The position numbers and the translations under genes are program-made. The notes under the pieces are model-generated. The model did not search any database. It had not been told where the DNA came from and saw only the letters and a program-made list of their open reading frames with translations. From Deltaproteobacteria bacterium (GTDB lineage: Bacteria; SAR324; JACQKK01), in contig JAOUEW010000004.1 of the NCBI GenBank assembly GCA_029858505.1, positions 2,520-66,519 on the forward strand: a DNA stretch of 64,000 bases, in the 5' to 3' direction. The first letter of the stretch is position 1, and each line of letters begins with the position of its first letter. Shown here piece after piece: positions 1 through 63,357 of the stretch.

Positions 1-59
1 TTTTTTTGCGGCCGGGTTTTTACTCCAATCGTTCATTGTCGTAAGGACCTCTCCGAAAC

Positions 60-1233: not shown

Positions 1234-1357
1234 GGGCTGTGGGGGATGGGAGGGGGAACCGCGTTGATGGCGTTTGGGCTGTGAGCAGCCCACGGGGATT
1301 TGGCGGCGCAAACGATATTTTCAGACGGAGGCCCGCCTGGATTTCGAGCCTTATTTT

Positions 1358-1996
1358 CTACATTTCCCCAAGACTTGTCAAAGATTTATCCCCTATTTCA
1401 TACAACGATCCATCGGTGATAAGAGCGTGGAGAGGAATGTCCCAGGTGTCTTGGGGCAGGGGTTCGGCCAGCTGCAGCTGAAAGGCTGCCGCCGCCAACA
1501 AGGGGGGGTTGCCCAGCCGGTTCAGCCGGGCCAAAAAACGGTCGTAATAACCCTGCCCAAACCCCAGCCGCCCCCCTTGGCGGTCAAAGGCCAACCCTGG
1601 CACCACCACCAGCCCGGCATTCATCAGCAGGGCTTCGTCGGCGGGTTCTGCTGGTTCGGGCAGGGGAATGCCATAGGGGCCCGGAATCAACCGGTGGTTG
1701 GGCAAATAGTGTAGGCATTCCAGGCTGTTCCCTGGGCCCACCCGGGGCACCAAGGTGGTTTTGCCCAGGGCCCAGCAGGCTTGGAACAACGGGGCGGTGT
1801 CGGCTTCTTCTGGCAGGCTAAGGGGGGCATGTACCACCTTGGCTTGTAAAAATCCTGACCAGGCGGTGAACCGAGCCCATAACGCTTGGGTGGCTCGGGT
1901 CCGTTCTTCTGGCGGAAGGGCAGCCCGCCGTTGGCGGTATTCCCGGCGCAACCGGGATTTTTCGGCGGCGGTGGAAGACAAGTTTTGGGGGGTCAT
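1358..1996 (-). CDS. 5-formyltetrahydrofolate cyclo-ligase (MTHFS family)
   Basis: 212 aa; conserved C-terminal motif GxGxGYYDR (GFGQGYYDRFL) typical of 5-FTHF cyclo-ligase; ATG at 1994-1996 overlaps the stop of the upstream radical SAM gene (ATGA). Confidence 0.8.
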   Translation of the reverse strand: MTPQNLSSTAAEKSRLRREYRQRRAALPPEERTRATQALWARFTAWSGFLQAKVVHAPLSLPEEADTAPLFQACWALGKTTLVPRVGPGNSLECLHYLPNHRLIPGPYGIPLPEPAEPADEALLMNAGLVVVPGLAFDRQGGRLGFGQGYYDRFLARLNRLGNPPLLAAAAFQLQLAEPLPQDTWDIPLHALITDGSLYEIGDKSLTSLGEM

Positions 1997-3675: not shown

Positions 3676-3734
3676 GGAGATTCGCGAAGGGTTGGATTGT
3701 ATTCAGAATATCACGCCATGCCCCTGACTTCATC

Positions 3735-3990
3735 TGTCCAACCGTAGCTCGAAGCCTTCGGTTATTCTGTTCAACCGTTTGGATGAGAAGACCGAACGGA
3801 AGCAGGGCATAACCTTTCGGCGTTGTGTTGTTCCCGAACAGCACCCCTCCCTGGCGGCTTCGCCGCCTGTCCCTCCCCATTCGGAGAGGGACCATGCTCG
3901 AATCCAATGGATTCTGATTTTATCCGTTCGGAATACATGGGCTGGACGGAAGCAGGGCATAACCTTTCGGCGTTGCGTACCGGGATGCCC
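3735..3990. repeat. Composite copy of the intergenic repeat family with internal 30-nt exact direct duplication
   Basis: Modules 'gctcgaagccttcggttattctgttcaaccgtt', 'ccgaacggaagcagg', 'ccctccccattcggagaggga', 'gctcgaatccaatgg', 'ccgttcgg'. The 30-mer 'acggaagcagggcataacctttcggcgttg' occurs at 3796-3825 and again at 3936-3965. ORFs 3730..4083(-) and 3779..4126(+) are artefacts of this repeat. Confidence 0.7.
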
Positions 3991-4109
3991 AGGGTCAGGG
4001 TGTTGGTGGGAACTGGCGGCGGGGGGTGTTGTCTTCACAATCTTTCCCATCTCTTTACAAACCTCACTCTTTACCAACCTCACAATCCAAACATCGACAT
4101 ATACCCCGC

Positions 4110-4604
4110 CTAGGGCGCGCCGGTGACTTCCACTTCAACCTGGCCGTTGGTGCGCTTCTTCAGGGTAAAGGCCACGGCAGACACGCCGGATTCTTTGGGG
4201 TTGGAAATCCTCACTTGAACCCGGCAATGGCGGGTCATGCCATCGGTTCCGCCATCGGTGGGGTTTTCCAGCGACACGGTGTATTCCGCCGCGGCTTGGC
4301 GGCCGTATTCAAACACCATCTGATTGTACAGCACCCGTTCCACCAGTTTCTGGCCTTCGGGCAGATCGCAGGGGGGGGCCGCCACCGGGGGGTTGATGAA
4401 AAACACCAAGCTTCCCGCCAAGGCCAGGGCCGCCACCGACACTCCCCCAGTTACCCCCCAGCGGAACCGGGGCTGCTCGCGCCAGCGGGTTTTGTGGGCC
4501 TCCCACAAAATACGCAGGGGGTGGCGGGCCACCTCGTGGGCCACGTGGTCCAGGTCGGAGGGGAGATCGTTGTTGAGTCGCTTGCGGAAGAGTTTCAGCT
4601 TCAC
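4110..4604 (-). CDS. Hypothetical membrane-anchored protein
   Basis: 164 aa, GTG start at 4602-4604; one N-terminal TM segment (VSVAALALAGSLVFFI) then a soluble domain; same strand as sthA. The antisense + ORF 4026..4658 is H/G/R-rich junk. Confidence 0.55.
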   Translation of the reverse strand: MKLKLFRKRLNNDLPSDLDHVAHEVARHPLRILWEAHKTRWREQPRFRWGVTGGVSVAALALAGSLVFFINPPVAAPPCDLPEGQKLVERVLYNQMVFEYGRQAAAEYTVSLENPTDGGTDGMTRHCRVQVRISNPKESGVSAVAFTLKKRTNGQVEVEVTGAP

Positions 4605-4743
4605 TGGACCGTTGCTGGGGGGAGGAACATGAACCCGTGTGGCAAAGAGCTAGAGTAAAAGAACATGATATATGACAAAAGTAAAAAAAGGAGTAACAGG
4701 ACACGATAAAAGGGTTCCATTCCCCGGCAGGAATTGCAACCGC

Positions 4744-16961: not shown

Positions 16962-17996
16962 ATGATGTTTGCATCCCCGAACCGGTATGGTTCCCGGCCT
17001 GGGCCGTGGTCCACAGCTGTGTTTGTTTCTCTGCTGGTCCTGCTGGCCGTGGCGCCCTTGACCGCCCAGGCCAAGGAACCCGGCCGGGTGGCGGCCCAGG
17101 TAGACGGCCAGCCCCTGTATGCCGAAGAAATGAACAGCGCCGATTTGTATGCCGCCCGCAAACAGGTGTATGCCCTGGAAATGGCGGCCCTGCGCCATCA
17201 GGCGTTGGAAGTGCTGCGGGCCAAACGGCCTGGGCAGTTTCCCGCCCCGCGGGTTCGGGTGAGCGATAAAGAGGTCGAAACGTTTTATCAAAAGGCCAAC
17301 CTGCGCCAACGGGGCAGCCTGGCCGATTTTAAAGACAGCATTCGGGAGTACATCACGGCCCAGAAAACCGCCCAGGCTGAACAAGAGCAATTCAACCAAG
17401 CCGTGGCCCAGGGGTTGATTCAACCTCGGCTAGCGCCCCCCCCGCCGTTTTTGTTCCGCATCAAGCAGGTGAAAGGTGCCGCCAGTCGGGGGCCCCAAAA
17501 CGCCCGGGTGGTGCTGGTGGAGTTTTCTGACTTTCAGTGCCCGTTCTGCCTGCGGGTGCAGCCCACCCTCACCGCGCTGCTGAACAACAACCCCAAAACC
17601 GTTCGCTTGGAATACCGGCACATGCCCCTGGACAACCTGCACGACGAAGCCCGGCGGGCCGCCCAGGCCACCGAGTGCGCCGGGGAACAGGGGGTCTTTT
17701 GGGCCTATCACGATCAGTTGTATCAGTCGCCCCGTGACCTGAATGATCAAAAACTGATGGCCCTGGCGGAGAAGTCGGGGGTGAAAGACCGCAAGGCTTT
17801 TTCCACCTGCCTGAACTCGGGGCGCTATGCCAAACGGGTGGCGGAAGACGAAAAAGCCGCCGCAAGCCTGGGCATTACCGGAACGCCGGGGTTTTTGGTG
17901 GCCAGGGAAAAAGGGGAATGGCTGGAAGGGGTGGTGTTGAGCGGGGCCATGCCCTTGGAGAACTTTCAAGAGGCGGTGGACGACATGGCCCGATGA
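16962..17996 (+). CDS. Secreted DsbA-family thiol:disulfide oxidoreductase with N-terminal extension
   Basis: 344 aa; signal peptide; thioredoxin-fold active site CPFC (SDFQCPFCLRV); C-terminal DsbA-like region. Confidence 0.8.
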   Translation: MMFASPNRYGSRPGPWSTAVFVSLLVLLAVAPLTAQAKEPGRVAAQVDGQPLYAEEMNSADLYAARKQVYALEMAALRHQALEVLRAKRPGQFPAPRVRVSDKEVETFYQKANLRQRGSLADFKDSIREYITAQKTAQAEQEQFNQAVAQGLIQPRLAPPPPFLFRIKQVKGAASRGPQNARVVLVEFSDFQCPFCLRVQPTLTALLNNNPKTVRLEYRHMPLDNLHDEARRAAQATECAGEQGVFWAYHDQLYQSPRDLNDQKLMALAEKSGVKDRKAFSTCLNSGRYAKRVAEDEKAAASLGITGTPGFLVAREKGEWLEGVVLSGAMPLENFQEAVDDMAR

Positions 17997-18004
17997 CACA
18001 GGCC

Positions 18005-18185
18005 TTCCATTACCCGCTGGGCATCCCCTCCCCGGGCTATACAGATGGGAAGGGGAATCGCTCGAATCCGCAATGTTATGCGCTTGCTTCCGTTCAGTCT
18101 TCAAGCAACAGAACAGTTGAATTGAATAACCGATGGCTTCGAGCATTGCCCCTCTCTACGGCAGAGGGGCAGCCCGCGCTAGCGG
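18005..18185. repeat. Copy of intergenic repeat family
   Basis: 'cccctccccgggctatacagatgggaagggg' hairpin, 'gctcgaatccgcaatgttatgcgcttgcttccgttcag', 'ccgatggcttcgag', 'cccctctctacggcagagggg'; sits between convergent genes. Confidence 0.65.
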
Positions 18186-18298
18186 GCGGGGTGCGTTTGA
18201 ACAGTTCAGCCCCCTTCCGTTGGAAGGAGGCTGAAGTTTGGTAAGAAATGAAGTCGGGATGGAGCCAGATAAAGGAGAAGACCAGGGGCTAACAACGC

Positions 18299-18523
18299 TT
18301 AGATCAGCCCGGCTTCTTTCAGGGCGGCGTAGGCACCCTTTTTATCCAAAGAGCGCAGGGCCTTGGTGCTCAATTTCACCGTGATGTATTTTTTCAGTTC
18401 CGGCACAAACACCCGCCGCGTTTGCAGGTTGGGCTGCTGCACGTGGTTGGTTTTAATGTTGGAGTGGGAAACACGGTGCCCGTTCAGCCGCCGTTTTCCG
18501 GTCAGTTCGCAAATTCTGGACAT
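18299..18523 (-). CDS. rpmB: 50S ribosomal protein L28
   Basis: Start MSRICELTGKRRLNGHRVSHSNIKT at 18521-18523 (ORF track extends further upstream); canonical L28 N-terminus. Confidence 0.9.
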   Translation of the reverse strand: MSRICELTGKRRLNGHRVSHSNIKTNHVQQPNLQTRRVFVPELKKYITVKLSTKALRSLDKKGAYAALKEAGLI

Positions 18524-18640
18524 GGCCTGAGGTCTGGTAAAAGGGTCTGAAAACAACAGAGGCAGGAAACGTTTCCTCTGGGTAATATTATTCGCGTAAA
18601 CGTTATTTTGAACATGCCCCTGGGGGAATGTCAACCGGGG

Positions 18641-32265: not shown

Positions 32266-32814
32266 ATGTTCCTTCGTTCAAAATTCAATTCTGGGGGCAG
32301 AGTCATGGCCAGTCGCAAGCCGGAACCAACATCACCGCGCGCGGTGAAGAAAACCAAGAAATCACCCAAAAAATCTTCCCCCCCAATCCAGTCCAAGGAA
32401 GGACGGAAGGATTTGAACCAGGATGGAGAAAAATCCATGGAAGAAATACACCGTTGGGAATATTTGTACCAGCATGACCCGCTGCCCACACAGCGTCGGC
32501 GGTTGAACCTGCCGCCCGGAGAAATCCGCCACGGGAACGTGGAGGCCTGGATGAATATTTTGCGGTCTTATCACCACGCTCATCCCGCCCACGGGATTGT
32601 GTTTTATTTTCGCGACGAACCGGTGAACAGCCCCGCCCAGTTGTTCCGCCAAACGCCCATTTTGGCCACCCAAGAATTTCGGGTAGAGGTGGAAGCCGCC
32701 GATGAGGACTGGTCGGACCTGCCCAAGCTCACCCGGCTGCTGGCCGAAGGGGCCGGAGAAAATTTTGAAATGTATTTGTCGAGGGAACTCTACCAAATCA
32801 AGGACCTGTTTTGA
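32266..32814 (+). CDS. Hypothetical protein with basic Lys/Pro-rich N-terminus
   Basis: 182 aa (alternative ATG 32305 with GGGGG RBS); N-terminus KKTKKSPKKSSPP; stop TGA overlaps the TTG start of ubiE (TTGA). Confidence 0.5.
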   Translation: MFLRSKFNSGGRVMASRKPEPTSPRAVKKTKKSPKKSSPPIQSKEGRKDLNQDGEKSMEEIHRWEYLYQHDPLPTQRRRLNLPPGEIRHGNVEAWMNILRSYHHAHPAHGIVFYFRDEPVNSPAQLFRQTPILATQEFRVEVEAADEDWSDLPKLTRLLAEGAGENFEMYLSRELYQIKDLF

Positions 32815-33590
32815 GCTACCGCCTGCCCGACGCGGCCGACAAACCAGCCTATGTGCAAGCGCGGTTCGACGCCATCGCCCGCCGATATGATCTGTTCAAC
32901 GACCTGATTACCCAAGGCCAACACCGCTGGTGGAAGCGCACGCTGGTGAACCGCGTGGCGGGGGCGGTGGAGATCAAGGCCCCGGGGGTGCGGGGGCTGG
33001 ACCTGTGCTGCGGCACGGGAGACATTGCCCAGCGGGCCCTGGCGGGCATGGGCATGGGTGCGGGGGAGGCTGGAGGGACTGGGGGGGCAAACGGAGGTAT
33101 GGTGATGCTCGACTTTTCCGCCAACATGCTGTCCATTGCCCAAAACCGGCTGCGCCGCGCTGGCACCCAACCCGCCCGAAGGCTGTTGACCCGGGGAGAC
33201 GCCATGGCGCTGCCCTTTGAGGACGGCGCCTTTCAGTTTGTCACGGTGGGGTTTGGTCTTCGCAATGTTTCAGACCTGGGGGGCTGCTTGCAGGAAATTC
33301 ACCGGGTGCTGGCGCCGGGGGGGGTGTTGGCCTCGCTGGATGTGGGCAAGGTCCGCCCCCGTTGGATCAAAGCCCTGGCCGATCTGTATTTCTTCCGGGT
33401 GGTTCCCCTCATCGGGCGGATGATTCAGCCGGGGGAAGAAATGTTCACCTACCTGCCCGAATCCTCCCGGTCTTATCCTTCTCAGGAAGCCCTGGCGGCC
33501 ATTTTGGCCGAGCACGGCTTTCAGCGGGTGGAGGTGCTGAATTACATGTTTGGCTCGGCGGCCATTCATCTGGCCCGCAAGCCGGGGTGA
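32811..33590 (+). CDS. ubiE: Demethylmenaquinone / ubiquinone biosynthesis C-methyltransferase
   Basis: 259 aa; TTG start; 'ARFDAIARRYDLFNDL' UbiE/MenG N-terminal signature; SAM motif 'LDLCCGTGD'; contains a Gly-rich insertion. Confidence 0.8.
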   Translation: MSYRLPDAADKPAYVQARFDAIARRYDLFNDLITQGQHRWWKRTLVNRVAGAVEIKAPGVRGLDLCCGTGDIAQRALAGMGMGAGEAGGTGGANGGMVMLDFSANMLSIAQNRLRRAGTQPARRLLTRGDAMALPFEDGAFQFVTVGFGLRNVSDLGGCLQEIHRVLAPGGVLASLDVGKVRPRWIKALADLYFFRVVPLIGRMIQPGEEMFTYLPESSRSYPSQEALAAILAEHGFQRVEVLNYMFGSAAIHLARKPG

Positions 33591-33597: not shown

Positions 33598-33870
33598 CTA
33601 TACACCCCGTCCCATCCTTTCCCCTCGCTGTTTCTCCCTGTACTCGAATCCATCGGCTATTCTGTTCAGCCGTTCGGTTGGTGAAAACTACACGGAAGCA
33701 ACACCCAAACGCAATCGAACGCCCCCTCTCTTCGGGAGAGGGGGGTGAGGTCTAATCAAGCCGATAACTTTTCGGATTCATGCTGTATTTCCCTCCACGA
33801 AGGGGAGGGGATGCCCCCACAGGGGGCAGGGGAGGGGTGCTTCTGGAGAGGGGCCAAACGTGTGAGCGGC
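33598..33870. repeat. Long composite copy of intergenic repeat family
   Basis: 'ctcgaatccatcggctattctgttcagccgttcgg...acggaagcaacacccaaacgcaatcgaacg ccccctctcttcgggagagggggg tgaggtctaatcaagcc...tttccctccacgaaggggaggggatgcccccacagggggcaggggagggg' matches 55455-55800 nearly base-for-base. Confidence 0.75.
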
Positions 33871-33981: not shown

Positions 33982-35751
33982 TTACAATTTCAGCCAGCCG
34001 GATTGAATGCGCTTGTAGGCGGCGGCGTCCAGCGGAGAGTAGGTTTTGTTGTCCCGGTCCAAATAAAACATGGGGTCCTTAACCTTGGCCGGATCAAAGC
34101 CGGAGGCTTTCAGCTCTTTTTTGTCTTTTTTGAAGGTGCCCGTCATGGCGGCGGCGGTTTGAACCCGCACAAAGGCTGGCCGTGAAAAATGGGGCAGGTG
34201 GTCTTCCACGAACCGGAAGAAGATTTCTGGGTTGAATTGTTTGGAATGGCTGATGGTGAGGGCGGCCATTCCGGCTTTGCCGTCCATCTTGGCGATTTCC
34301 ACCCCATACACCGTGGCGAAATCCACCCACGATACGCCCGAAGTGATGATCTCTTCCACTTCGTGGGTAGACACGTTTTCCCCTTTCCAGCGGAAGGTGT
34401 CTCCAATGCGGTCGATGAAATAATAGTGCCCCGTATCGTCTTTCCGCAACAGGTCGCCGGTGCTAAAGAAGGCGTCACCGGTTTTCAACACGTTTCGCAG
34501 AATTTTCTTTTCGGTGTCTTTGGGGTTGGCGTAGCCGTGGAAAGGGGTCAGGGCTTTGATCTGGGCCAGCAGTTCGCCTGGCTCACCGGGGCGGCACAGT
34601 TCGGCAAACCCGTTGTGCCCGCGAATAATCTGCTCCGAGGCGATGTCGTAGCGCACCAGCCGCAGGTTGTCCGAGGTTTTCAGGGCGGCTTTGCCCACCG
34701 AGCCATCGGTGTCGTCCAGGTTCAGCAGATAGGCATTGCCCTCGGTAGAGGCGTAGAATTCGCGGATGTGGTCGATGCCGAAGCGGTATTTGAACTGCCC
34801 CCAAATGTCGGGGCGAAGACCGTTGCCCAGCACCCGGGTGACCTTGTGGTTGCGGTCGAAGGCACCGCTGGGGGTGTTCACCAAATACCGCAGCAACTCG
34901 CCAATGTAGATGGCGCAGGTGGCGCCGTGGCGGCTGGCTTCTTCCCAAAAGCCCGAAGCGGAAAACCGGCGGGTGAGCGCAAACTTGCCGCCGTTCACCA
35001 GGGCCGAGGCGAAGGCGATGAGAATGCCGTTGGAGTGGTACAAAGGCAGGGGGCAGTACACGGTATCGCTGGGTTTCACCCCCAGGGCGTAATGGCCCAT
35101 CAGCAGGCCAGCCCCATACCAGCGGTAATGGGTAATCATGGCGGGCTTGGGCAAGCCCGTGGTGCCAGAGGTGTAAATGTGCATCATCAGGTCATCGCTG
35201 CCAATGCCCGCAGAGGAGGGGTTGTCGTCTTGGGTTCGCAGCAACGCCTGGGTCAGGTCGTTGGACCCGGCGGGGGACTTGTCTTTGGTGGGGTAGCGGG
35301 TGTCCATGTAAATATTGGGCCCCCGAATTTTTTCCAGGCTGCCCGCCACGTCCATGAATTGGGGCAGGCATTCGGCCCCCACAATGATGTGGTTGGCGGT
35401 GGAGGCGTTCAGAATATTGGCCAGGGCCACCCCCCGCAGGTTGTAGTTCACCGCCGCGGTAATGGCCCCCAGTTTGCCCAGGCCCGCCACCGTGGCCATG
35501 AATTCCGGTCGGTTTTCCATCAGCAGCAGCACCACGGTGCCCTTCCGCACCCCTTGAGACGAAAAATAATGGGCCCGACGGTTGGCCATGCGGTTGTATT
35601 GGTCAAAGGTGTAACGGTCGTTTTCAAACAGCAAAAAGTCATCATCAGGGCGTTTGGCCGCCATTTTTTCCAGGGTGTTGCCCAGGGTTTTGTTTTTAAA
35701 GGCCAGCAAGCGGACATATTTGAACAAAAACGAGTAATATCGGGCGGCCAT
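33982..35751 (-). CDS. Very-long-chain acyl-CoA synthetase / fatty acid transport protein (FATP) family
   Basis: 589 aa; AMP-binding motif 'YTSGTTGLPKPA'; FATP-like 'GDTFRWKGENVST'; ATG 35749-35751. Confidence 0.85.
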   Translation of the reverse strand: MAARYYSFLFKYVRLLAFKNKTLGNTLEKMAAKRPDDDFLLFENDRYTFDQYNRMANRRAHYFSSQGVRKGTVVLLLMENRPEFMATVAGLGKLGAITAAVNYNLRGVALANILNASTANHIIVGAECLPQFMDVAGSLEKIRGPNIYMDTRYPTKDKSPAGSNDLTQALLRTQDDNPSSAGIGSDDLMMHIYTSGTTGLPKPAMITHYRWYGAGLLMGHYALGVKPSDTVYCPLPLYHSNGILIAFASALVNGGKFALTRRFSASGFWEEASRHGATCAIYIGELLRYLVNTPSGAFDRNHKVTRVLGNGLRPDIWGQFKYRFGIDHIREFYASTEGNAYLLNLDDTDGSVGKAALKTSDNLRLVRYDIASEQIIRGHNGFAELCRPGEPGELLAQIKALTPFHGYANPKDTEKKILRNVLKTGDAFFSTGDLLRKDDTGHYYFIDRIGDTFRWKGENVSTHEVEEIITSGVSWVDFATVYGVEIAKMDGKAGMAALTISHSKQFNPEIFFRFVEDHLPHFSRPAFVRVQTAAAMTGTFKKDKKELKASGFDPAKVKDPMFYLDRDNKTYSPLDAAAYKRIQSGWLKL

Positions 35752-35924
35752 GGGGTCTCCTGGGAAGGGGGTGGTCGGTGAAGTTCTTTTAATGATTTAC
35801 GTCATTCCCATGGAAGTGGCAATCAAGACCTCCTTGAATGGGGGGGGTTTTTCAGAAATACCGGATACTTGAGATATAACGACCAATAAACCAGCAACTT
35901 GTATGATTGAACGATAGGGGCGGT

Positions 35925-36170
35925 TCACCCATCGGGACCTCAACCCCCGCCCCCCTCTCCCGAGGAGAGGGGGAGTTCAATGGCGTTTGGGCGTTGCTTA
36001 CTTCCGCCCAGTCTTTGTTTCCGAACGGATGATTCGAATACCCGATGGCTTCGCGAATTTCCCCTCCCTGATTGGGGAGGGGATGCCCGCAGGGCAGGGG
36101 AGAGGTGTGATTGGAGGGGGCAGGGGGGAGAGGTGCTGGGGGAGAGGCCCTGGGCGCCCCATGGGCGGGG
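35925..36170. repeat. Copy of intergenic repeat family (inverted orientation relative to 55500 copy)
   Basis: 'cccccctctcccgaggagaggggg', 'gttcaatggcgtttgggcgttgcttacttccg' (reverse complement of 55520 'acggaagcag..cccaaacgccattgaac'), 'ccgaacggatgattcgaatacccgatggcttcgcgaa', 'cccctccctgattggggaggggatgcccgcagggcagggga'. Confidence 0.7.
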
Positions 36171-36171
36171 A

Positions 36172-37194
36172 TTAAATTTCGTGGCAGGCGGCCCAGTGGG
36201 CCGGTTGAATTTCTCGCCAGGGGGGGGGCGTGCCGCGGCAATGCTCCCGGGCCAGGGGGCAGCGGGGGTGAAAGGCGCACCCAGGGGGAGCATTGGCCGG
36301 GTCGGGGACTTCTCCCCCCAGCAGTGTGCGGGGAAGGCCAGTGCGCCGGGGGGCCACCGCAGGGTCGGCGGAGGGCACCGCCGCCAGCAGGGCCTGGGTG
36401 TAAGGGTGGCGGGGCCGGGAGAACAGTTCTTCACGGGGGGCCAGTTCCGCCAGCCGCCCCAGGTACATCACCGCCACCCGGTGGGCCAGGTGCCGCACCA
36501 CCGCCAAGTCGTGGGAGATAAACAAGTAGGCCATCCCCCGTTCGGCCTGAAGCCCCGCCAGCAGGTTCACCACCTGGGCCTGGATCGACACATCCAGGGC
36601 AGACACGGGCTCATCGGCCACAATCAGCGCCGGGTCCAGGGCCAGGGCCCGGGCAATGCCCACCCGTTGGCGTTGGCCCCCAGAAAACTGGTGAGGGTAC
36701 ATGGTCCTTTGGTCTGGGCGCAGCCCCACCCGTTGGAACAGGGCCGCCACCCGGTCTTTCCGTTCCGCCGGGGTGCCGATGCGGTGAATCGCCAGGGGTT
36801 CTTCCACCATGGCTCCGGCGGTCATGCGGGGGTTCAGGCTGGCGTAGGGGTCTTGGAAAATCATCTGCATGCGGCGGCGGTGGGGGACCAGGTCTCGCGC
36901 TGACAGCCCCGACAGGTCGGTGCCCTCCAGCAGCACCCGGCCAGCGGTGGGGGGAATGAGCCTGAGCACCATGCGCCCGGTGGTGGTTTTGCCGCAGCCC
37001 GATTCCCCCACCAGGGCCAGGGTTTCTCCCCGGTTCAGGGCAAAGCTCACCCCGTCGACCGCTTTGACCCAGCGGTGGGGTTTGCCCCACAGGTTTCCCC
37101 CCAGGGGAAAGTGCCGGGAGAGCTGCTCCACCGTGAGCAACGGGGCGGCGTTGGGGGAAGAATTATTTTGTTCGAGGGGGTGGTTCATCGACAT
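36172..37194 (-). CDS. oppF: Oligopeptide/dipeptide ABC transporter ATP-binding protein
   Basis: 340 aa; Walker A GESGCGKTT, ABC signature LSGGQRQRV, C-terminal oligopeptide-ABC extension with Cys-rich motif (CAFHPRCP). Confidence 0.85.
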   Translation of the reverse strand: MSMNHPLEQNNSSPNAAPLLTVEQLSRHFPLGGNLWGKPHRWVKAVDGVSFALNRGETLALVGESGCGKTTTGRMVLRLIPPTAGRVLLEGTDLSGLSARDLVPHRRRMQMIFQDPYASLNPRMTAGAMVEEPLAIHRIGTPAERKDRVAALFQRVGLRPDQRTMYPHQFSGGQRQRVGIARALALDPALIVADEPVSALDVSIQAQVVNLLAGLQAERGMAYLFISHDLAVVRHLAHRVAVMYLGRLAELAPREELFSRPRHPYTQALLAAVPSADPAVAPRRTGLPRTLLGGEVPDPANAPPGCAFHPRCPLAREHCRGTPPPWREIQPAHWAACHEI

Positions 37195-38235
37195 TTACTC
37201 AGCCGGGTGGTGGCAGGCGGTGAAATGGGCGGGAGCTCGTTGCGCGGGCTCATGGGTGGGGCCTGGGTCCTGGCGGCAGGCGTGGTCGGCCTGGGGGCAG
37301 CGGGGGGCAAAGGCGCACCCAGGGGGCCGGGCCCCCGGCGGGGGTACCAAACCTGGAATCTCGGCCAGGGAAGTTTGGTTCCGGCCGGGCCGTGCCCCCA
37401 GCAACCCACGGGTGTAGGGGTGCCGGGGGCGGGCGAACAACTCATCCACCGGAGCTTCCTCCACCACCCGCCCGGCGTACATCACCGCCACCCGTTGGGC
37501 CTGCTGGGCCACCACCCCCAGGTCGTGGGTAATGAACAGCACCGCCGTGCCGTTCTCTCGTTGCAGGGCTTCCATCAAGTCCAAAATCTGGGCCTGGATG
37601 GTCACATCCAAGGCGGTGGTGGGCTCGTCGGCCAGCAGCAGGGCCGGGCGGCAGGCCAGGGCCATGGCAATCATCACCCGCTGGCGCATGCCCCCCGACA
37701 ACTGATGGGGGTACTCGGCGGCCACCCGGGCCGGGTCGGGGATGCGCACATGGGCCAATTCGGCCTGGGCCCGCTCCCAGGCTTCTTTCCGGGAAAGCCC
37801 CTGGTGCAGCCGCAGCACTTCGGCCACCTGTTTGCCCACGGTGTGCACCGGGTTCAGGGCGGTCATGGGCTCTTGAAAAATCATGGACACCCGGTTGCCC
37901 CGCACCTGGCGCAGGGCGGCCCCGGAAAGGGCCAGCAGGTTTTGCCCTTCGAACATGGCCTTCCCCCTGGCGCGGGCGCCCTCGGGCAGCAGCCCCAGCA
38001 GGGCCAGGGCCGTCAGGCTCTTGCCGCAGCCCGACTCCCCCACCAGGGCCAGGGTCTCCCCCGGCACGATGGTCAGGTTGACGTCCTCCACGGCGGCCCG
38101 GGGGCCCGCCTGCCCCGGCAGAGGAGGAAAATCCACCCCCAGGTGTTCTACCCGCAGCAGGGGCGGCGCGGAACCCGGACCGGGTTCAGGGGCCGTGATG
38201 AACGGAGCAGCCGTTGGAGAGGAGAGGGTGGGCAT
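37195..38235 (-). CDS. oppD: Oligopeptide/dipeptide ABC transporter ATP-binding protein
   Basis: 346 aa; Walker [11 protein letters not shown], signature [10 protein letters not shown]-terminal CAFAPRCP motif; stop abuts oppF start. Confidence 0.85.
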
Positions 38236-49612: not shown

Positions 49613-50458
49613 ATGCCTGCACACGGCCAGACCGGACCCACGCCACCGGGTGAACCCGACGACCCCGCCGGGCAGATTTCTCACCTGCCGGTGGACCGCG
49701 TTTTGCCGAACCCCCTGCAGCCCCGCCGCCGGTTTGAAGAAGAAAAAATTGCCCAACTGGCGGTGTCCATCGGCCAGCAGGGCATGATTCAACCGGTGGT
49801 GGTGCGGCCCCACCCGGCCCACCCAGGTTCCTTTGAAATTGTGGCGGGGGAACGCCGTTGGCGGGCGGCCAAGCACCTGGGCCGGGCCACGGTGCCAGTG
49901 CTGGTGCGGCAGATTGACGATATCGACCTGTTGGAAACCGCCCTGGTGGAAAACCTGCAGCGGGAGGCCCTGACCCCCGTGGAGGAAGCCCAGGCCTATC
50001 GGGACCTGCTGGAACTCCACGGTTACACCCAAGAAACCCTGGCCAAGCGCGTGGGGCGCGACCGCTCCACCATTGCCAACATGGTGCGGCTGCTGGCCCT
50101 GCCAGCACCCGTGCGGGATTTGTTAGAGGCCGGGCGGTTGACCACTGGCCACGCCAGGGCCCTGCTGGCCCTCCCCGATAGTGAGCGCATGACCCTGCTG
50201 GCCCAAGAGGTGGTGGCCAAGGACTTGTCTGTGCGCGACACCGAGAAGCGGGTGAAGCAGGAATTGGACGGCCCCGCCCCGGCCAGTTCCACCCCTGACA
50301 AGCCCGTGCATCACCATTACCAGACCGTGATGAACGACATGGCCCGCCACCTGGGCACCCGGGTGTTCATTGATCAAAAAAATCACCAGGGCAAAATCGA
50401 GATCGAGTTCTATTCTTTGGACGACTTCAACCGGCTGTATGATTTGTTGATGGATTGA
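49613..50458 (+). CDS. parB: Chromosome partitioning protein ParB/Spo0J
   Basis: 281 aa; ParB box 'IQPVVVR', HTH region, 'GERRWRAA' ParB N-terminal signature. Confidence 0.88.
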   Translation: MPAHGQTGPTPPGEPDDPAGQISHLPVDRVLPNPLQPRRRFEEEKIAQLAVSIGQQGMIQPVVVRPHPAHPGSFEIVAGERRWRAAKHLGRATVPVLVRQIDDIDLLETALVENLQREALTPVEEAQAYRDLLELHGYTQETLAKRVGRDRSTIANMVRLLALPAPVRDLLEAGRLTTGHARALLALPDSERMTLLAQEVVAKDLSVRDTEKRVKQELDGPAPASSTPDKPVHHHYQTVMNDMARHLGTRVFIDQKNHQGKIEIEFYSLDDFNRLYDLLMD

Positions 50459-50800
50459 TGCTCAGGGGGGGGCTGTTCAAATGCTTGTCGTTCGAAGCCA
50501 TCGGTGATTCCCTCCCTCCAACCACACCTCTCCCCTGCCCTGCGGGCATCCCCTCCCCAGTCAGGGAGGGGAAAGACTTGAATCCACCGGTTTCTATTTT
50601 CATCCGTTCTGAAAACATAGACTGGACGGAAGCAAGCGCATCACTCATCGGATTCGAGCCATTCCCCCCTCCCTGATTGGGGAGGGGGGCAGGGGGGAGA
50701 GGTTCTGTTGGGACAACGCTCGATGCCAACGGTTATTCATCCGTTCGGTTCATAAAAACTAGACGGAAGCAATCCATTCACCGGCTTCGAGGAACGGGTG
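50459..50800. repeat. Composite copy of intergenic repeat family (two ggacggaagcaa units)
   Basis: 'cgttcgaagccatcggtgattcc', 'cccctgccctgcgggcatcccctccccagtcagggagggg', 'cttgaatccaccggtttctattttcatccgttctg...ggacggaagcaagcgcatcactcatcggattcgagcc', 'cccccctccctgattggggaggggggcagggggg', 'ccgttcggttcataaaaactagacggaagcaatcc'. Confidence 0.75.
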
Positions 50801-50882
50801 TTGTTGCGTGAAGCCCCTTGGGATACAGTATTTCTAGCCAGCATTCCGGCATTCCCCCACCCCCTTTACCATTGCCGCGCCC

Positions 50883-53498
50883 ATGGGCTTATCTTTAGAC
50901 CGATACACCAACCGGGCCCAGGCGGCCATTTTGGCCGGGCAAGAACTGGCCGAGAAGCGGCGGCATTCCAAGATTGACCCGGAACATTTGCTGCTGGCCC
51001 TGCTGGACGACAAAAAGGACCTGGCCTCGGTGTTGTTGGACAAGGCCGGCACCGACGCCGACAACTTGGCCCGCCAGTTGGAACAGGCCCTGGACCGCAT
51101 GCCCCGCACGGCCCCCAGCGGGGCCACCCCCTATGTGTCGAAAAAATTGCAGTTGGTGTTGCAGCGGGCCGACCGCGACGCCGCCGCCATGGGCGATCAA
51201 TTTACCAGCACCGAGCACCTGCTGATGGGCTTGGCGGCGGAGCGGGGGTCGGAGGCGTTTGACGCCTTGGCGGCCAGGGGGGTGACCCGGGGCACCATAC
51301 AAGAACTGCTGCCGGGGCTGCGGGGCAGCGAGCCCATCAAAGACAAGGCCGCCGGAGAAAACATTGGGGTGCTGGAAAAATATTGCCAAGACCTGGTGGC
51401 CCAGGCCCGCCAGGGCAGCCTGGACCCGGTCATTGGCCGCGACGAAGAAGTGCGCCGGGTGATTCAGGTGTTGTCTCGCCGCCGCAAGAACAACCCGGTG
51501 CTCATCGGCGAGCCGGGGGTGGGCAAAACGGCCATCATCGAGGGGCTGGCCCAGCGCATTGTGTCTGGCGACGTGCCCATGACCCTGAAAGACAAGCGGG
51601 TGTTAAGCATGGACCTGGGCGCGTTGATTGCTGGGGCCAAGTACCGGGGAGATTTTGAAGACCGCCTGAAGGCCTTGATCCGGGCGGTGGAGGAGTCGGA
51701 CGGCGACATTATTTTGTTCATCGACGAGCTGCACACCCTGGTGGGGGCGGGGGGCAGCGAAGGGGCCATCGACGCCTCGAACATGCTGAAGCCCGCCTTG
51801 GCCCGGGGTACCCTGCGCTGCGTGGGGGCCACCACCCTGAAGGAATACAAAAAGTATATTGAAAAAGACCCGGCCCTGGAACGGCGCTTTCAGCAGGTGC
51901 TGGTGAAGCAGCCCGATGTTCCCCTCACCATCGCCATTTTGCGGGGGCTGAAAGAACGCTACGAGGTTCACCACGGCATTCGCATCAAAGACTCCGCCAT
52001 CGTGGCGGCGGCCAATCTGTCGGACCGTTACTTGCCAGACCGCTTCTTGCCCGACAAGGCCATTGACCTGATTGACGAGGCCAGCGCCATGCTGTGCATC
52101 GAGATTGACAGCCTGCCCACCGAGATTGACCAGATTGACCGGAAGATCATGCAGATGGACATTGAATCTGCCGCCCTGCGAAACGACGACGACCCGGCGG
52201 CGGCCAAACGGCTGGCCGGGCTGGAAAAAGAGCTGACGCGGTTGAAGCAAGAAACCGCGGTACGCAAAGAAGCCTGGAAGAAAGAGCGGGCGTCCATTCA
52301 AAAAGCGCGGGAGCTGAAGGAAGAAATTGAACACACCCGGCTGAAAGAACAAGAGGCCCAACGGGCTGGAGACCTGGAACTGGCCGCCCGGTTGAAATAC
52401 GGCGTGCTGGACGACCTGAACCGCCAGCTGGAAGCGGCCAACCGCCAACTGGACCAATCGGGGAAGGGGCGGATTCTGCGGGAGGCGGTGGATGAAGAAG
52501 ACATCGCCGGGGTGATTTCCCGCTGGACGGGCATTCCGGTGGCCCGCATGCTGGAAGGCGAACGCACCAAACTGGTACGCATGGAAAAAGCCCTGGGCCG
52601 CCGGGTGGTGGGGCAGGATGAAGCCTTGGTGGCGGTGTCTTCGGCCATTCGCCGTTCACGGGCGGGGATTCAAGACCCCAACCGGCCCATTGGGTCGTTC
52701 ATCTTCGCCGGGTCCACCGGGGTGGGCAAAACCGAACTGGCCAGGGCCCTGGCGGAATTTTTGTTCGACGACGAACGGGCCATCATCCGCATGGATATGT
52801 CGGAGTACATGGAGAAGCATTCGGTGGCCCGCATCATCGGGGCGCCCCCGGGCTACGTGGGCTTTGAAGAGGGAGGCAACCTCACCGAACAGGTGCGCCG
52901 CCGCCCCTACGCGGTGATTTTGGCCGATGAAATTGAGAAGGCCCACCCCGACGTGTTTAACCTGTTCCTGCAAATTTTAGACGAAGGCCACCTGACCGAC
53001 AGCCAGGGCCGCACCGTGAACTTCAAAAGCACGGTCATCATACTCACCACCAACCTGGGGCAAGAATCTTCGCCCGACGGCCAGCCCCTGCCCCACGAAG
53101 AACAGGTGAAGCGCACCCGCCAACGCCTGAGGGAACACTTTCGCCCAGAATTTTTGAACCGGGTGGATGAAACCGTGGTGTTCCGCCCCCTGGGGGCCGA
53201 TCAGATTCGCCAGATTGTGCGGCTGCAAATGGAGTTGCTGCACAAGCGCTTGGCCGACCACCACATTGAACTGGTGATGCGCCCGGAGGCGGAGGAACAT
53301 CTCTCCCGGTTGGGGTACGACCCGGTGTTTGGGGCCCGACCTCTCAAGCGGGTTATTCAGCACGAAATTCAGGACCTGCTGGCCTACAAAATGTTGGATG
53401 GCACCCTGCACGAGGGCGACCGGGTGGAAGTACGCTTGGGCAAAGACCGCCTGACCTTCCACCGCATGGCCGGGACCGAAGGCCAAGCGGCGGTTTGA
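50883..53498 (+). CDS. clpB: ATP-dependent chaperone ClpB
   Basis: 871 aa; two AAA+ modules ([18 protein letters not shown]), long coiled-coil middle domain. Confidence 0.97.
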
Positions 53499-53855: not shown

Positions 53856-54006
53856 GGTCTTCCGATGGATTGGGGGGCAGGGGGCAAATAGGGGCCGTTT
53901 CGGTTGACTTTTCTCAGGGTGAGGGTCTTTCTAATTTATATAGGCCCGGTTTTTGAAAGTCTATGTCCGGGGGAGGTATCGTGGTTTCCTGTTCACCGAA
54001 TTTTCC

Positions 54007-55398
54007 ATGCCGGGTATGGCCGAATCATCTCAAGATAGCTCGAAAAAAGGGGGGTCCTCTTCTGGTCAGGGGGATGGGGGCCGGGGTTTGCCCGCCGACT
54101 TTGCCTCCCGCATCGCCACCAAAATCATTGTGACCCAAGAGCGGGAGCGGGACCCGGAAGCGGCCGCCCTGAAGGTGTCGTCGCTGATTACCCGCAACCT
54201 GAACGTGGAGGGCCGCCATTCTCAGTTTCTGGAGGCCACCCGCATTATGCTGGAGGATGAAGACACCCAGCGATACGCCGCGGTGTCTTGGGCTTCTTTG
54301 CACTTGGCCAAAGACCAAAACCCCGCTGGAGAAACGTTTTTAGGGTTTGTGCTCGATGCCGCGATTATTGAGCACATGAACCTGGAAAAACCGCTGTATG
54401 AAATGGAAATGCGGCGGAAGAAATTCTCCCATTACGCCTGGATGATGGGAGAAGTGTTTATCAACATTACCCGGATGTCGAACGAATTGTTCGACGTGGT
54501 GAGCCATATGTTCTCTCTGATCATCCGCAAAGAGATGATTATGGAACAAAAGATGAAGGAAGAGCGCTCCACCACCCGCCGGTTGATTGTGGGCAGCCAA
54601 AAAGAAAAAGAAACCGCCAGCAAGAAATTGTTCGATGACTTGGTGGACTACATCCACACCCGGGGCGAATTTAAGTCGGACTCGTTGAACCAGCAGAACC
54701 CCAACGAATTTATTGCCGTGCTGGCGGACCGCCTGCGGGGGACCCGCCGCTATGTCATCCAAGACATCGTCAACAAGCAGGCGATGGACCGGAAAAAGCA
54801 GGCGGAAAAAGAACTTTCAGAAAAGCAGGCCAGCGCCGAGGAAATCATTCGGGCCAAAGACCCCTTCAAGAAAGCGCTGCGGCTGTTTTGGACGGAGAAG
54901 CGCTACAACTTTAAGTACCTGTCGGTGGAAAAGGTGCGGGTCACCCTGCAAATGATCGCCGTGGTGGTGGGCATCGGCCACTTTCTGATCGGGTACATTG
55001 GGCTGTTGGATATTCACTGGGGAGAAGGCATAGTGGTGGGGATGGGCATGTATTTGTTCGCCCGGTTTGCCATCAGCCGGAAAAGTTTTTTGCGGTTCTA
55101 CCCGGAAGACGTTTCCAAGGAATTGGAAACCGTGGTGGGCCACATTACCCCCACCTTGCGAAAAATGACCAAAACCCAGTTGTCGCCCTTTTTGGTAAAT
55201 CAGGTGAAAGACGGCGAGAACACCAAGCTGCTGCTGGTGGTGCCAGAATTTGTGAAGTATTTGTTCGCGGTGATGCCCGAACGGCGGAACATGATTGTGA
55301 CCTATGAGCAGCTGCATGAAATCATGGAAACCCTGGAAATGGAAGTCTCTCGCCAGGCCAGGGATTTGAGTTACTTCCACCGTCCCCCGCCCGCCTAA
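54007..55398 (+). CDS. Hypothetical protein, lower-GC, with two central TM helices
   Basis: ORF track start TTG 53953; first ATG 54007 (MPGMAESS). Body GC ~55% vs ~66% background; Lys/Glu-rich helical regions flanking 'VTLQMIAVVVGIGHFLIGYIGLL' and 'IVVGMGMYLFARFAI'. Confidence 0.6.
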   Translation: MPGMAESSQDSSKKGGSSSGQGDGGRGLPADFASRIATKIIVTQERERDPEAAALKVSSLITRNLNVEGRHSQFLEATRIMLEDEDTQRYAAVSWASLHLAKDQNPAGETFLGFVLDAAIIEHMNLEKPLYEMEMRRKKFSHYAWMMGEVFINITRMSNELFDVVSHMFSLIIRKEMIMEQKMKEERSTTRRLIVGSQKEKETASKKLFDDLVDYIHTRGEFKSDSLNQQNPNEFIAVLADRLRGTRRYVIQDIVNKQAMDRKKQAEKELSEKQASAEEIIRAKDPFKKALRLFWTEKRYNFKYLSVEKVRVTLQMIAVVVGIGHFLIGYIGLLDIHWGEGIVVGMGMYLFARFAISRKSFLRFYPEDVSKELETVVGHITPTLRKMTKTQLSPFLVNQVKDGENTKLLLVVPEFVKYLFAVMPERRNMIVTYEQLHEIMETLEMEVSRQARDLSYFHRPPPA

Positions 55399-55399
55399 A

Positions 55400-55860
55400 A
55401 GTTCTTGGGTTCAGGCCAAACGATTTTCCTCCCCCCTTTTCCTCCCCCCTCTGCGTCCCCATCCCGTTACTCGAATCCACCGGATATTCTCTTCAACCAT
55501 TCGGAAAACAAAGATTGGACGGAAGCAGGCAATGCCCAAACGCCATTGAACGCCCCCTCTCTTCGGGAGAGGGGGCGGGGGGTGAGGTCTCATCAAGCGA
55601 AGAATGGACCTCACCCCGCCCGCTGGCGCGGGCTGCCCCTCTCCCGATGGAGAGGGACAATACTCGAATCCATCGGTTCTTCTATCCAACCGTTCGGAAA
55701 GCATACACTGATCGGCAGCAAGCGCATGACATTTCGGATGCGAGTTGTTCCCCTCCACGAAGGGGAGGGGATGCCCCCATCAGGGGGCAGGGGAGGGGTG
55801 TTGTTGGGATGCCCGCAGGGCAGGGATGATTGGGGGAGAGAAACAACACGGCAGTGCGGC
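55400..55860. repeat. Largest composite copy of intergenic repeat family (>=3 nested units plus hairpin spacers)
   Basis: Units starting 'actcgaatccaccgg' (55463) and 'actcgaatccatcgg' (55661), each with '...ccRttcgg...ggacggaagca / cggcagcaagcgcat...'; hairpins 'ccccctctcttcgggagaggggg', 'cccctctcccgatggagaggg', 'cccctccacgaaggggaggggatgcccccatcagggggcaggggagggg', 'gggatgcccgcagggcaggg'. Confidence 0.75.
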
Positions 55861-55921
55861 TGGTGCTTGAACAACACACGATTCTCCGAGTTTACGATCT
55901 GGCTTTCCCGTCGTGTTCCAC

Positions 55922-56680
55922 TTAACGGAATTGCGAAGTGTTGACGGTAAGCACCTGGCCGTTGGAGCGCTTCAACGTAAACGTTTTCTCGTCTTTCCAG
56001 GCAATGGGGGCGGTGGGCAGGCCGTTGTACACGGGGGAGGGCAAATGCCGCACCCGCCCTTCGTTGAACAGGGAAAGGTGAAGTTTTAAGGGGAACCGCT
56101 GGTCGGTGCCGGTGGGGGCCCCAGGTTCGTCTTTGCCCACGTGGAAAAAGACCACGCCTTCGGCTCCGGCGGTCACGCCATCGGCGGTTTTGGCATAGGG
56201 CAGCAGGTCCACCAACGCTGGCGTGTTCACCCGGCGGTAAACTTTTTTCACCACCACGCCGTCCATGGTGGCCGTCAGGGTGTAATAGCCGGGGGCCACA
56301 ATGGTGATCACGGGGGCGCTGTCTCCCGGTGCCATGTGGGCGCCGACCTCCCATTTGTCTTGATCGTTGCGGGCCAGGTACACGAACCGCCCCTCCACCG
56401 GCAGGGCCGTCACGGCCACGATGGTTTTTCCCGGCAGGGCCAGCAGCAGCTGGTTCCCCAGGTACACCCCGTTGCCCGGCCGGTTTTCAGGAAACACCTG
56501 ATAGGTCTCCATGGCCACAATGCCCCGGTGCTGGGGGTCGGCGGGATATTCTTCCGCGCTCCACAGGGGGCTGGCCCAAACCAGCGCTGCGGCGAACAAC
56601 ATTCCCGCGGCTTTGAACCGGCGGTGAGCAGCCAAGGAACCAACAGGGGAGCCAACAGGGGAAAAAAACTTGGGCGCCAT
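55922..56680 (-). CDS. Secreted hypothetical protein
   Basis: 252 aa; signal peptide (AAGMLFAAALVWASPLWSA); beta-rich mature region. Confidence 0.55.
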   Translation of the reverse strand: MAPKFFSPVGSPVGSLAAHRRFKAAGMLFAAALVWASPLWSAEEYPADPQHRGIVAMETYQVFPENRPGNGVYLGNQLLLALPGKTIVAVTALPVEGRFVYLARNDQDKWEVGAHMAPGDSAPVITIVAPGYYTLTATMDGVVVKKVYRRVNTPALVDLLPYAKTADGVTAGAEGVVFFHVGKDEPGAPTGTDQRFPLKLHLSLFNEGRVRHLPSPVYNGLPTAPIAWKDEKTFTLKRSNGQVLTVNTSQFR

Positions 56681-63206: not shown

Positions 63207-63300
63207 AGTGGAGGGGGGGGAATGGCTCGCACCCGACAAGTTAGGCTCTTGTTGCCGTTCAGTTGATATATTCCGAACGGGAGAATAGAACGAACCGGTG
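63207..63300. repeat. Short degenerate copy of intergenic repeat family
   Basis: 'ggctcgcacccgacaag', 'gccgttcagttgatatattccgaacgg' (ccgttcag/ccgaacgg palindrome). Confidence 0.5.
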
Positions 63301-63357
63301 GCGTCGAGTCATGGGGAATGGATTTCAGAGTATGGGATTTTCCGTTAACCTGAGGTC

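Follow-up and report, generated by a model that had tools for sequence, protein, structure and literature searches.

Eight gaps between housekeeping genes in a 64,000-nt stretch of a SAR324-related bacterial genome (GenBank assembly GCA_029858505.1, contig JAOUEW010000004.1; hereafter, the window) hold copies of one lineage-specific family of hairpin-rich DNA repeats. We analyze the anatomy, distribution and patterns of constraint of this family, and we propose, with an estimated probability of about one half, that its members belong to the REP/REPIN/BIME type of palindromic DNA repeat, being non-coding and non-autonomous. The family is undescribed and lineage-specific but ordinary in kind, and current understanding is not overturned by it.

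Intergenic palindromic repeats are common in well-studied Proteobacteria and barely charted in uncultivated phyla. The repeats described here fragment short-read assemblies of this organism, and the family gives a strain- or lineage-specific marker. It also constitutes a natural test of repeat persistence, with composite arms that accumulate compensating changes standing beside a core that is conserved in sequence and not in fold.

Extent of the repeat family

Repeat finding over the whole window yielded one large family joining eight loci in both orientations (entries D1-D3, D6, D7, D10, D11 and I1-I17 of the window repeat list). The exact box CTCGAATCC is present in eight copies over both strands of the window, against 0.35 expected, and none of 100 shuffles reached that number; ACGGAAGCA is likewise present in eight exact copies, against 0.51 expected, a count that no shuffle attained. 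A core profile built from 12 hand-picked units and searched with nhmmer located 12 core units in the window, every one of them at one of the eight loci, while a profile of the flanking GC-hairpin arms located ten arms, all of them within the same loci.

These results bear out an earlier reading of the letters alone, made by eye and with no database search (the sequence-only reading), which had described a dispersed, modular, hairpin-rich family at eight places: all eight hold the repeat and the rest of the window holds none. The three modules it had named, a box with its inverted partner, the combination CCGTTCGG ... ACGGAAGCA and a set of GC hairpins, were recovered as described. The eight places stood and several of their ends did not, the locus given as 60-215 reaching to ~308 and having two units, that given as 18005-18185 extending to ~18200 and that given as 63207-63300 extending to ~63317 (Table 1).

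Every copy, in the window and in the other loci examined, is intergenic and lies among housekeeping genes, and the intergenic character reported earlier holds without exception. The accompanying statement that many copies lie between convergent genes applies to only three of the eight loci; at three more the neighboring genes are co-oriented, one locus has divergent neighbors and the last is truncated by the window edge. Many clusters begin 1-40 nt past a stop codon.

Pairwise identity among cores has a median of 62%, with 87% for the best pair from different loci and 97% only for tandem neighbors. Two copies that had been taken as near-identical over ~200 nt, at 33640-33860 and 55455-55850, share 77% identity over 137 nt and 86% over 84 nt, with an internal deletion between the two segments; the recent spread that had been read from their near-identity loses its basis. 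The repeat copies are old, and near-identity is confined to tandem neighbors.

Anatomy of the element

When all copies are set in one orientation with their flanks, the recurrent element measures ~200-230 bp and consists of an arm, a core and a second arm in reverse complement. Loci C, F and G of the window each contain one complete element, and more are found in the additional loci L006, L007 and L009. The arm spans ~75 nt and comprises two G+C-rich hairpins, in the order tail TCCCAACAGCACC, CCCTCCC, a hairpin of variable stem (hp-alpha), a second hairpin (hp-beta), AATG and the box CTCGAATCC. The second hairpin takes the form (T)CCCCTCCCC-loop-GGAGGGG or GTCCCTC-loop-GAGGGAC, and both hairpins are palindromes flanked by the conserved CCCTCCC. 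The core runs from the box CTCGAATCC to its inverted partner GGATTCGAG, with ~65 nt between the boxes, and contains CCGTTCGG and ACGGAAGCA; it has four conserved sequence boxes, no conserved fold and no covariation. The box-bounded unit of 85-95 nt proposed previously is only the middle of this larger element, the hairpins and the long inverted repeats being located in the outer arms.

The element is polar, with a type I arm next to box A and a type II arm at the opposite end (e.g. 55603-55807). Type I arms combine hp-beta GTCCCTC/GAGGGAC with an hp-alpha of GGCGGC, GCCGYCC, GGCACC or GCCCGC; type II arms combine hp-beta CCCCTCC/GGAGGGG with an hp-alpha of TGCCC(CC). A second right-end variant has GCCATTGAAC and two longer hairpins, H3 and H4, in place of the partner box (55545-55617). 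Arms of the same type are 82-96% alike across loci, against the median of 62% for cores; the highest value is that of pair I7, in which the arm at 78-128 of locus A is 96% complementary to 50663-50713, with 94% for pair I16 and further values of 0.82-0.92.

The modules (tail, hp-alpha, hp-beta, box A, core, H3 and H4) are met in varying combinations. Mosaic copies include solo cores (63215-63313), solo boxes (50488-50510), arms without hp-alpha (79-142 and 50647-50712), a duplicated hp-alpha module and one hp-alpha that is an unpaired hybrid of two variants. Tandem copies reach five units in an array with a period of ~200-237 nt (L006 5420-6560), and L004 carries a nearly exact 245-nt tandem duplication.

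Folding and covariation of arms and core

In the arms, 89.5% of stem cells pair, compared with 77.6% in shuffles, 35 cells have changed on both sides, compared with 16.6, and the covariation score is 0.197, compared with 0.071; these values lie beyond all 500 shuffles, in controls that leave the relatedness between arm subfamilies in place. Controls in which the pairing was slid gave 52-62%. The pairs are nearly all of the Watson-Crick type, with ~2 G-U cells in 247, a near-absence to be expected from constraint acting on both strands, or on the DNA as such, and not from constraint on a single strand of RNA. For hp-alpha, 19 of 20 copies have perfect stems of 5-7 bp, made of at least six different stem sequences, and the stems of different variants can cross-pair over at least 5 bp in only 2% of combinations. 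As DNA, the arms fold better than shuffles (z -2.4 to -4.0), as does the H3-H4-H5 block (z -7.1), and the complete element at 50510-50716 forms a single long hairpin on either strand (-110.9 and -111.5 kcal/mol; z -7.4 and -6.4).

For the core, RNAalifold predicted no consensus fold on 26 units. Its two obvious stems can pair in 84.5% of cells, with no measure above column shuffles, and an alternative fold drawn by hand also gave no covariation above shuffles. Cores have no folding advantage over shuffled sequence (z -0.3 to -1.1), and the 9-nt boxes, which can pair in 81% of cells, show covariation no higher than shuffles, so that the picture of a transposon-like unit bounded by these boxes finds no support in covariation, consensus fold or folding energy. 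In the outer core stem G-T and A-C mismatches are equal in number (9 v 9); the excess in the inner stem (21 v 6) stems mostly from one inherited column, and the strand test is uninformative.

As a separate observation on the hp-alpha loops, 11 of 20, read on the right-arm strand, are GCA or GAA triloops closed by C-G. GNA loops of the d(GCGAAGC) type are unusually stable in single-stranded DNA, and the triloops would fit a hairpin that forms at the DNA level.

Distribution beyond the window

The window carries lysS, pyrB, rpoD, rpmB, truA, nadK, purH, ubiE, thrS, glyA, gyrA, parB, clpB, ftsW, an aspartate kinase gene and nth. The proteins nearest to its ClpB belong to genomes labeled SAR324, Lambdaproteobacteria or 'Deltaproteobacteria', at 65-73% identity, and genomes with these labels also hold the nearest relatives of a lineage-specific 481-aa protein encoded beside locus G, at no more than 67% identity. 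Contigs of ENA ERZ27296335 and Logan SRR7132115 come from the same genome as the window, with 100% identity apart from chimeric joins inside clpB. Two Logan contigs end within repeats, as is expected of short-read contigs in multicopy DNA.

In metagenome contigs, a pattern made of three boxes matched seven stretches, all from a single JGI sample (Ga0224495) and some on contigs as long as 982 kb and 646 kb, and the only sequence these loci have in common with the window is the repeats. Their tetranucleotide composition correlates with that of the window at r 0.98, as closely as the two halves of the window do with each other; the value for a second, related organism is 0.90. Identical copies of two proteins of the window are also recorded on a contig of 0.2-1 Mb. 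On these grounds we treat the loci as parts of one genome, and they very likely represent other regions of the genome sampled by the window. The other contigs add at least 17 further units.

Searches farther afield were negative. The strict three-box pattern, run against one genome per species for 185,579 species, returned two hits at chance level (L001 and L002), in which nhmmer detected no units, and it returned none in viral contigs; with blastn, whole elements matched neither plasmids nor any of 5,426 E. coli genomes. Rfam at gathering thresholds gave no hit in the whole window. The absence of any match to a named family, noted before by eye, thus extends to these thresholds and to E. coli (the host of REP, BIME and ERIC), plasmids and viral contigs. 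Across the collections searched, the family was found in this genome alone, and it is specific to its lineage.

The second organism, the closest relative at 67% protein identity and with a G+C content of 0.58, has an orthologous spacer that cannot be aligned, in which the family is absent and a different repeat is present. This repeat lies at L015:11400-11800 (ENA ERZ27296335 k141_667351; JGI Ga0224495_10021560), downstream of the ortholog of the 481-aa gene, and comprises a tandem long-hairpin unit of ~95 nt (ccagcaaccagca ... gctggctggttgcc TTTGTTTTGGGG) together with related pieces. It seems that every lineage carries an intergenic repeat of its own in this spacer. Two ENA contigs follow the window at 100% identity as far as a conserved part of clpB (51412-51560), beyond which they continue as the second organism. 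The switches involve L011:1-10526 and L013:11948-13131; the first 10 kb of L011 have a G+C content of 0.58, a tetranucleotide r of 0.915 and the genes SLFN_AlbA_2, AAA_15 and DUF4276. Assembly chimerism between two co-occurring relatives is the most likely cause of the switch, and recombination a less likely one.

Proposed interpretation as a REP/REPIN-like repeat

REPINs are inverted doublets of palindrome-bearing arms separated by a less-conserved spacer; they are strictly intergenic and lineage-specific, occur in tandem arrays of up to five and have variable spacers that form hairpins, each REP consisting of a palindrome and its flanks (PMC3337134). They generate no target duplications, a single-copy RAYT transposase acts on their folded single strands, and those of Pseudomonas fluorescens are reported never to be hybrid (PMC3337134). 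Such REP/REPIN-RAYT systems are known from Pseudomonas and Enterobacteria through the work of Bertels & Rainey (PMC3337134, PMC3116915).

The family shares with these systems its intergenic location, its multicopy and lineage-specific character, the inverted doublet around a less-conserved spacer, the capacity of the whole doublet to form a long hairpin, arrays of up to five, maintained hairpin potential and the lack of apparent target-site duplications. Multicopy, intergenic palindromes with conserved flanks, the hallmark of a REP, are represented in the window by ten arms and 12 cores. The inverted doublet that characterizes a REPIN is found in the arm-core-arm arrangement, but the two arms differ in type and the core folds as shuffled sequence does. 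With BIMEs the family has in common palindromic units that alternate in orientation and make up a mosaic with a few recurring linker motifs, placed singly or in arrays between genes; the modules here are larger and the sequences unrelated to those in the 5,426 E. coli genomes, and the likeness to BIMEs is one of organization only. Similarity in sequence to the repeats of E. coli is likewise nil. Among the readings offered earlier, a REP-like nature is the best supported, by the doublets, the arm covariation, the arrays and the lineage restriction, and it points to the right neighborhood.

The mobility, the single-stranded DNA intermediate and the enzyme that we infer for the family would work together as follows. 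Arms would fold as paired hairpins once the DNA becomes single-stranded, and a recombinase encoded elsewhere in the genome, for which a RAYT-type Y1 transposase is the best candidate, would recognize the arm hairpins, now and then copying or moving doublets. Arrays would grow through tandem duplication, and recombination between shared modules would give rise to the mosaic of full, half and hybrid copies, most of which would by now be old and decaying. Effects on neighboring transcripts, such as protection of 3' ends, would be secondary, if any.

Several points weigh against this assignment. Arms of ~75 nt with two hairpins depart from classical REPs of 20-40 nt, each doublet contains two arm types, and the spacer bears strongly conserved boxes. 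With four such boxes the core is unlike a neutral spacer; the boxes may mark a further site of recognition or the binding of a host protein. No RAYT (PF01797) or other transposase is encoded in the 64-kb window or beside the repeats in ~60 kb of other loci, and the arm alignment has no obvious GTAG-like head. The dispersed copies, at 60-87% identity, give no sign of recent movement, and neither insertion polymorphism nor empty sites were seen, the other assemblies of the region all being 100% identical. Finally, the subfamily relatedness left in the covariation controls can inflate the contrast between arms and shuffles; the difference in constraint between arms and core is clear even so.

One gene adjacent to repeats was considered as a RAYT candidate and rejected: that at L009 1261-2124, flanked by inverted repeat clusters, encodes a PAC2-family protein. 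No integrase is found among the window genes.

Resemblance to whalefall-1

When thresholds are relaxed, whalefall-1 (RF01762) gives the highest-scoring bacterial Rfam match within the repeats, at 55607-55658 on the minus strand, with 24.1 bits and an E value of 0.065 for the whole window, short of the gathering threshold of 37 bits; seven further arms score 17.3-21.5 bits. The matches are always antisense to the unit and correspond to the reverse complement of type I arms. Read in this direction, the arm presents hp-beta, hp-alpha and then GGGGAGGGG / GGGGTGAGG, in accord with the description of the motif (PMC2864571 Additional file 1), and a joint alignment of the arms with the whalefall-1 seed contains TGTCCCTC ... 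GGGAGGGACAG, a variable hairpin and CAGGG(T/A)GAGG in the same order. The first stem of whalefall-1 (GUCCCUCC/GGAGGGAC), its linker ACAG and its tail CAGGG(U/A)GAGG are nearly those of the reverse-complemented type I arm, and both have a variable second hairpin. Of the 16 seed copies, 12 are arranged as six inverted pairs, with the members of a pair separated by 33-58 nt on the same contig (PMC2864571 Additional files 4, 5), each made of one 'type a' and one 'type b' copy, a doublet layout as in the repeat family.

The seed pairs have a common spacer of ~50 nt with a TTGACA-like box, in contrast to the core of ~95 nt described here; whalefall-1 also has an A+T-rich host and is annotated as a small RNA (sRNA), not as a DNA repeat. 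A sequence-only profile of its seed gave nothing significant against the window and the other loci, and the exact blocks common to arms and whalefall-1 extend over only 13-15 nt (E 0.04-0.7) of low-complexity sequence, so that the resemblance is one of design and not of family membership.

Whalefall-1 may thus belong to a REPIN-like repeat, either in place of being an RNA gene or in addition to it. We consider it a tentative and somewhat doubtful possibility that the arms and whalefall-1 are the same kind of object, whalefall-1 'sRNAs' being the arms of REPIN-like inverted doublets. If this were true, the published covariation of whalefall-1 would reflect the upkeep of a DNA palindrome, not RNA function, and an orphan 'non-coding RNA' of 2010 would be reinterpreted as part of a REPIN-like DNA element. 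The window would then hold a G+C-rich relative, and REPIN-type elements with composite, asymmetric arms of two hairpins would reach a new phylum. Conversely, the arms may be genuine small RNAs that arose out of repeats.

Alternative explanations

The repeats might instead be functional RNA, with arms or whole units transcribed and acting either as sRNAs or, within 3' UTRs, as blocks to exonucleases or attenuators of transcription, an explanation we hold to be unlikely. The start of many clusters shortly after a stop codon and the ~11 units co-oriented with their upstream gene fit this idea; most window units show this orientation and that at 63215-63313 does not, in a tally for which the gene calls of the extra loci are uncertain. 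Orientation is nonetheless mixed (the L007 units are -,+,-), the five-unit array of L006 is antisense to both flanking genes and lies beyond a canonical hairpin-plus-T9 terminator, and those of L009 follow a terminator and precede the next promoter region. Sites resembling promoters or terminators were not found within the repeats: the promoter scan was empty, and inside none of the scanned repeat loci does a T tract follow a hairpin. This speaks against the terminator role suggested earlier, and canonical terminators are separate from the repeats, at 33944-33922 on the minus strand (serving the opposing gene at locus D), before the array in L006 and at L009 590-630. With regard to structure, the arm hairpins covary and H3, read in the unit sense, is capped by a C(UUCG)G loop, but G-U pairs are nearly absent and the core has no conserved fold. 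Whalefall-1 itself was rated a likely non-coding RNA by Weinberg et al. (PMC2864571), and the arms resemble it through sub-threshold matches (24.1 bits in the window, 17-21.5 elsewhere) and through the blocks TGTCCCTC / GGGAGGGACAG / CAGGG.GAGG that both place around a variable hairpin; against this, all Rfam scores fall below the gathering value and the seed profile based on sequence finds nothing significant.

It also seems improbable that the family consists of classical miniature inverted-repeat transposable elements (MITEs), that is, internally deleted derivatives of insertion sequences moved by a DDE transposase through terminal inverted repeats. The termini would be either the boxes, (TA)CTCGAATCC / GGATTCGAG(TA), or the outer tails, TCCCAACAGCACC / GGTGCTGTTGGGA. 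Inverted termini are real, given the pairing of the boxes, the inversion of the ~75-nt arms and the long hairpin that 50510-50716 forms on both strands, and TA precedes the left box in ~10 of 26 units; the ends are not fixed, however, with arms, cores and half-units recombining freely. The sequence-only reading had named terminal inverted repeats and target-site duplications as the structures to look for in a mobile element: the former are present as long inverted arms and the latter are absent, no direct repeats being found at any of the eight cluster edges and no duplication at full-length tails. Known bacterial MITEs (Correia/NEMIS, ERIC, Nezha) are likewise intergenic and non-coding, measure ~90-230 bp and have terminal inverted repeats and long-hairpin potential, and the size (~90 or ~210 bp), intergenic place and multicopy status of the present family agree with theirs. 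They differ from it in their target-site duplications and fixed termini. The arms here are G+C-rich double hairpins with compensatory changes, unlike transposase-binding inverted repeats, and the element lacks symmetry, one arm being of type I and the other of type II. No insertion sequence, parental or other, and no transposase is present in the ~125 kb of this genome examined. Lacking target-site duplications, fixed ends and a parent element, the earlier reading as mobile MITEs was not sustained.

In a side result on the long hairpins, complete elements (50517-50712 on both strands and L007:488-714) score 28-36 bits against the plant miRNA-precursor family MIR7533 (gathering 230). This score reflects the ~200-nt hairpin alone and is biologically meaningless.

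BIMEs of E. coli are known to bind IHF or gyrase and to stabilize mRNA, and a third explanation, to which we assign a low probability, is that the repeats are DNA sites recruited by the host. Like BIMEs in E. coli, the core boxes and arm palindromes would then bind a host protein, for instance gyrase, a regulator or a nucleoid-associated protein, and the family would persist for chromosome structuring. The boxes CTCGAATCC, CCGTTCGG and ACGGAAGCA are nearly invariant, the intervening sequence drifts and no RNA-type covariation is seen, which is the pattern of a protein-binding site, and the boxes are set out as inverted repeats. No binding protein can be named, and no IHF-like consensus is recognizable by eye. 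The mosaic organization parallels that of E. coli BIMEs, and tandem arrays are on record for REPINs (PMC3337134); the copies, however, are clustered and tandemly duplicated instead of spaced, and many are truncated or hybrid, contrary to the need for a uniform site.

Other classes were rejected. A CRISPR array is contradicted by inter-unit 'spacers' that are themselves repeated modules. Integron attC sites have R''/L''...L'/R' boxes (RYYYAAC ... GTTRRRY), measure 57-141 nt and stand in co-oriented arrays of promoterless cassettes served by an IntI integrase; the tails TCCCAAC ... GTTGGGA resemble R boxes, and we reject this class by reasoning from the length of ~200-230 nt, the mixed orientation, the housekeeping context (gyrA, parB, clpB, rpmB) and the lack of an integrase nearby. 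The box TCGAATCC resembles a T-arm, as in a tRNA-derived repeat; ARAGORN found no tRNA or tmRNA in the window, and no tRNA-clan Rfam match falls inside the repeats even at E values up to 10.

Locus coordinates and minor observations

Table 1. Coordinates, strands and gene context of the repeat loci in the window and of the modules within them
Feature	Coordinates	Strand	Context or remarks
Locus A, cluster	49-308		Downstream of TPR gene 361-1311(-); repeat-covered span 49-303
Locus A, arm lacking hp-alpha	79-142	+	Found with arm profile
Locus A, core unit, left box replaced	123-203	-	Found with nhmmer
Locus A, second core unit	219-308	-	Found with nhmmer
Locus B, cluster	3744-4012	+	Between divergent radical-SAM gene 1993-3675(-) and gene 4026-4658(+)
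Locus B, cores	3744-3835, 3890-3981	+	Found with nhmmer
Locus B, type I arm	3835-3908		hp-alpha GGCGGC/GCCGCC, hp-beta GTCCCTC/GAGGGAC
Locus B, degenerate right arm	3982-4012		
Locus C, one complete element	18018-18200	-	Between DsbA-like gene 16962-17996(+) and rpmB 18299-18634(-)
Locus C, type I arm	18132-18200	-	
Locus C, core	18049-18150	-	
Locus C, degenerate type II arm	18018-18071		
Locus D	33634-33846	+	After ubiE-like gene 32811-33590(+)
Locus D, core	33638-33731	+	'Type-2' right end
Locus D, type II arm (reverse complement)	33772-33846		
Locus D, hairpins H3 and H4			H3 is CCCCCTCTC-TTCG-GGAGAGGGGG; H4 truncated
Locus E	35936-36123	-	Between minus-strand AMP-binding gene 33982-35751 and ABC ATPase gene 36172-37194; pairs I1 and I2
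Locus E, core	35964-36062	-	
Locus E, arm	36044-36114	-	
Locus E, H3/H4 remnants	35936-35975		
Locus F	50488-50806	+	Between parB 49613-50458 and clpB 50883-53498
Locus F, solo left box	50488-50510		
Locus F, arm	50518-50587	+	
Locus F, arm without hp-alpha	50647-50712	-	
Locus F, cores	50570-50669, 50712-50795	+	Followed by tail remnant
Locus G (region flagged at the outset)	55458-55838	+	Between convergent genes 53953-55398(+), 481 aa, and 55922-56680(-), 252 aa
Locus G, cores	55465-55562, 55656-55755	+	
Locus G, hairpins H3-H4	55551-55617		
Locus G, type I arm	55603-55674		
Locus G, type II arm (reverse complement)	55734-55807		
Locus G, extra hp-alpha and degenerate tail	55811-55838		
Locus H, solo core without full arms	63214-63317	-	Begins 8 nt past stop of aspartate kinase gene; upstream of nth
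Locus H, core	63215-63313	-	

A pyrimidine tract, ttcctccccccttttcctcccccctctgcgtcccc, occupies 55425-55460, directly upstream of the first unit of locus G, and similar C/T-rich runs precede 'C-type' left junctions at 33600-33637 and L009:640-667. Such a tract may belong to the element or mark a favored target.

The window repeat list also contains the direct repeats D4/D5 (36373-36700 and 37387-37714; 73-74% identity, 1014 nt spacing). They were rejected as family members and correspond to adjacent paralogous genes for oligopeptide-type ABC ATPases, 36172-37194 and 37195-38235, both on the minus strand.

Open reading frames of 100-179 aa cross the repeat clusters at 55405-55944(+), 55411-55758(-), 50427-50729(-), 3730-4083(-) and 35852-36434(-). 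They are artefacts of G+C-rich, stop-poor repeats and could be miscalled as genes.

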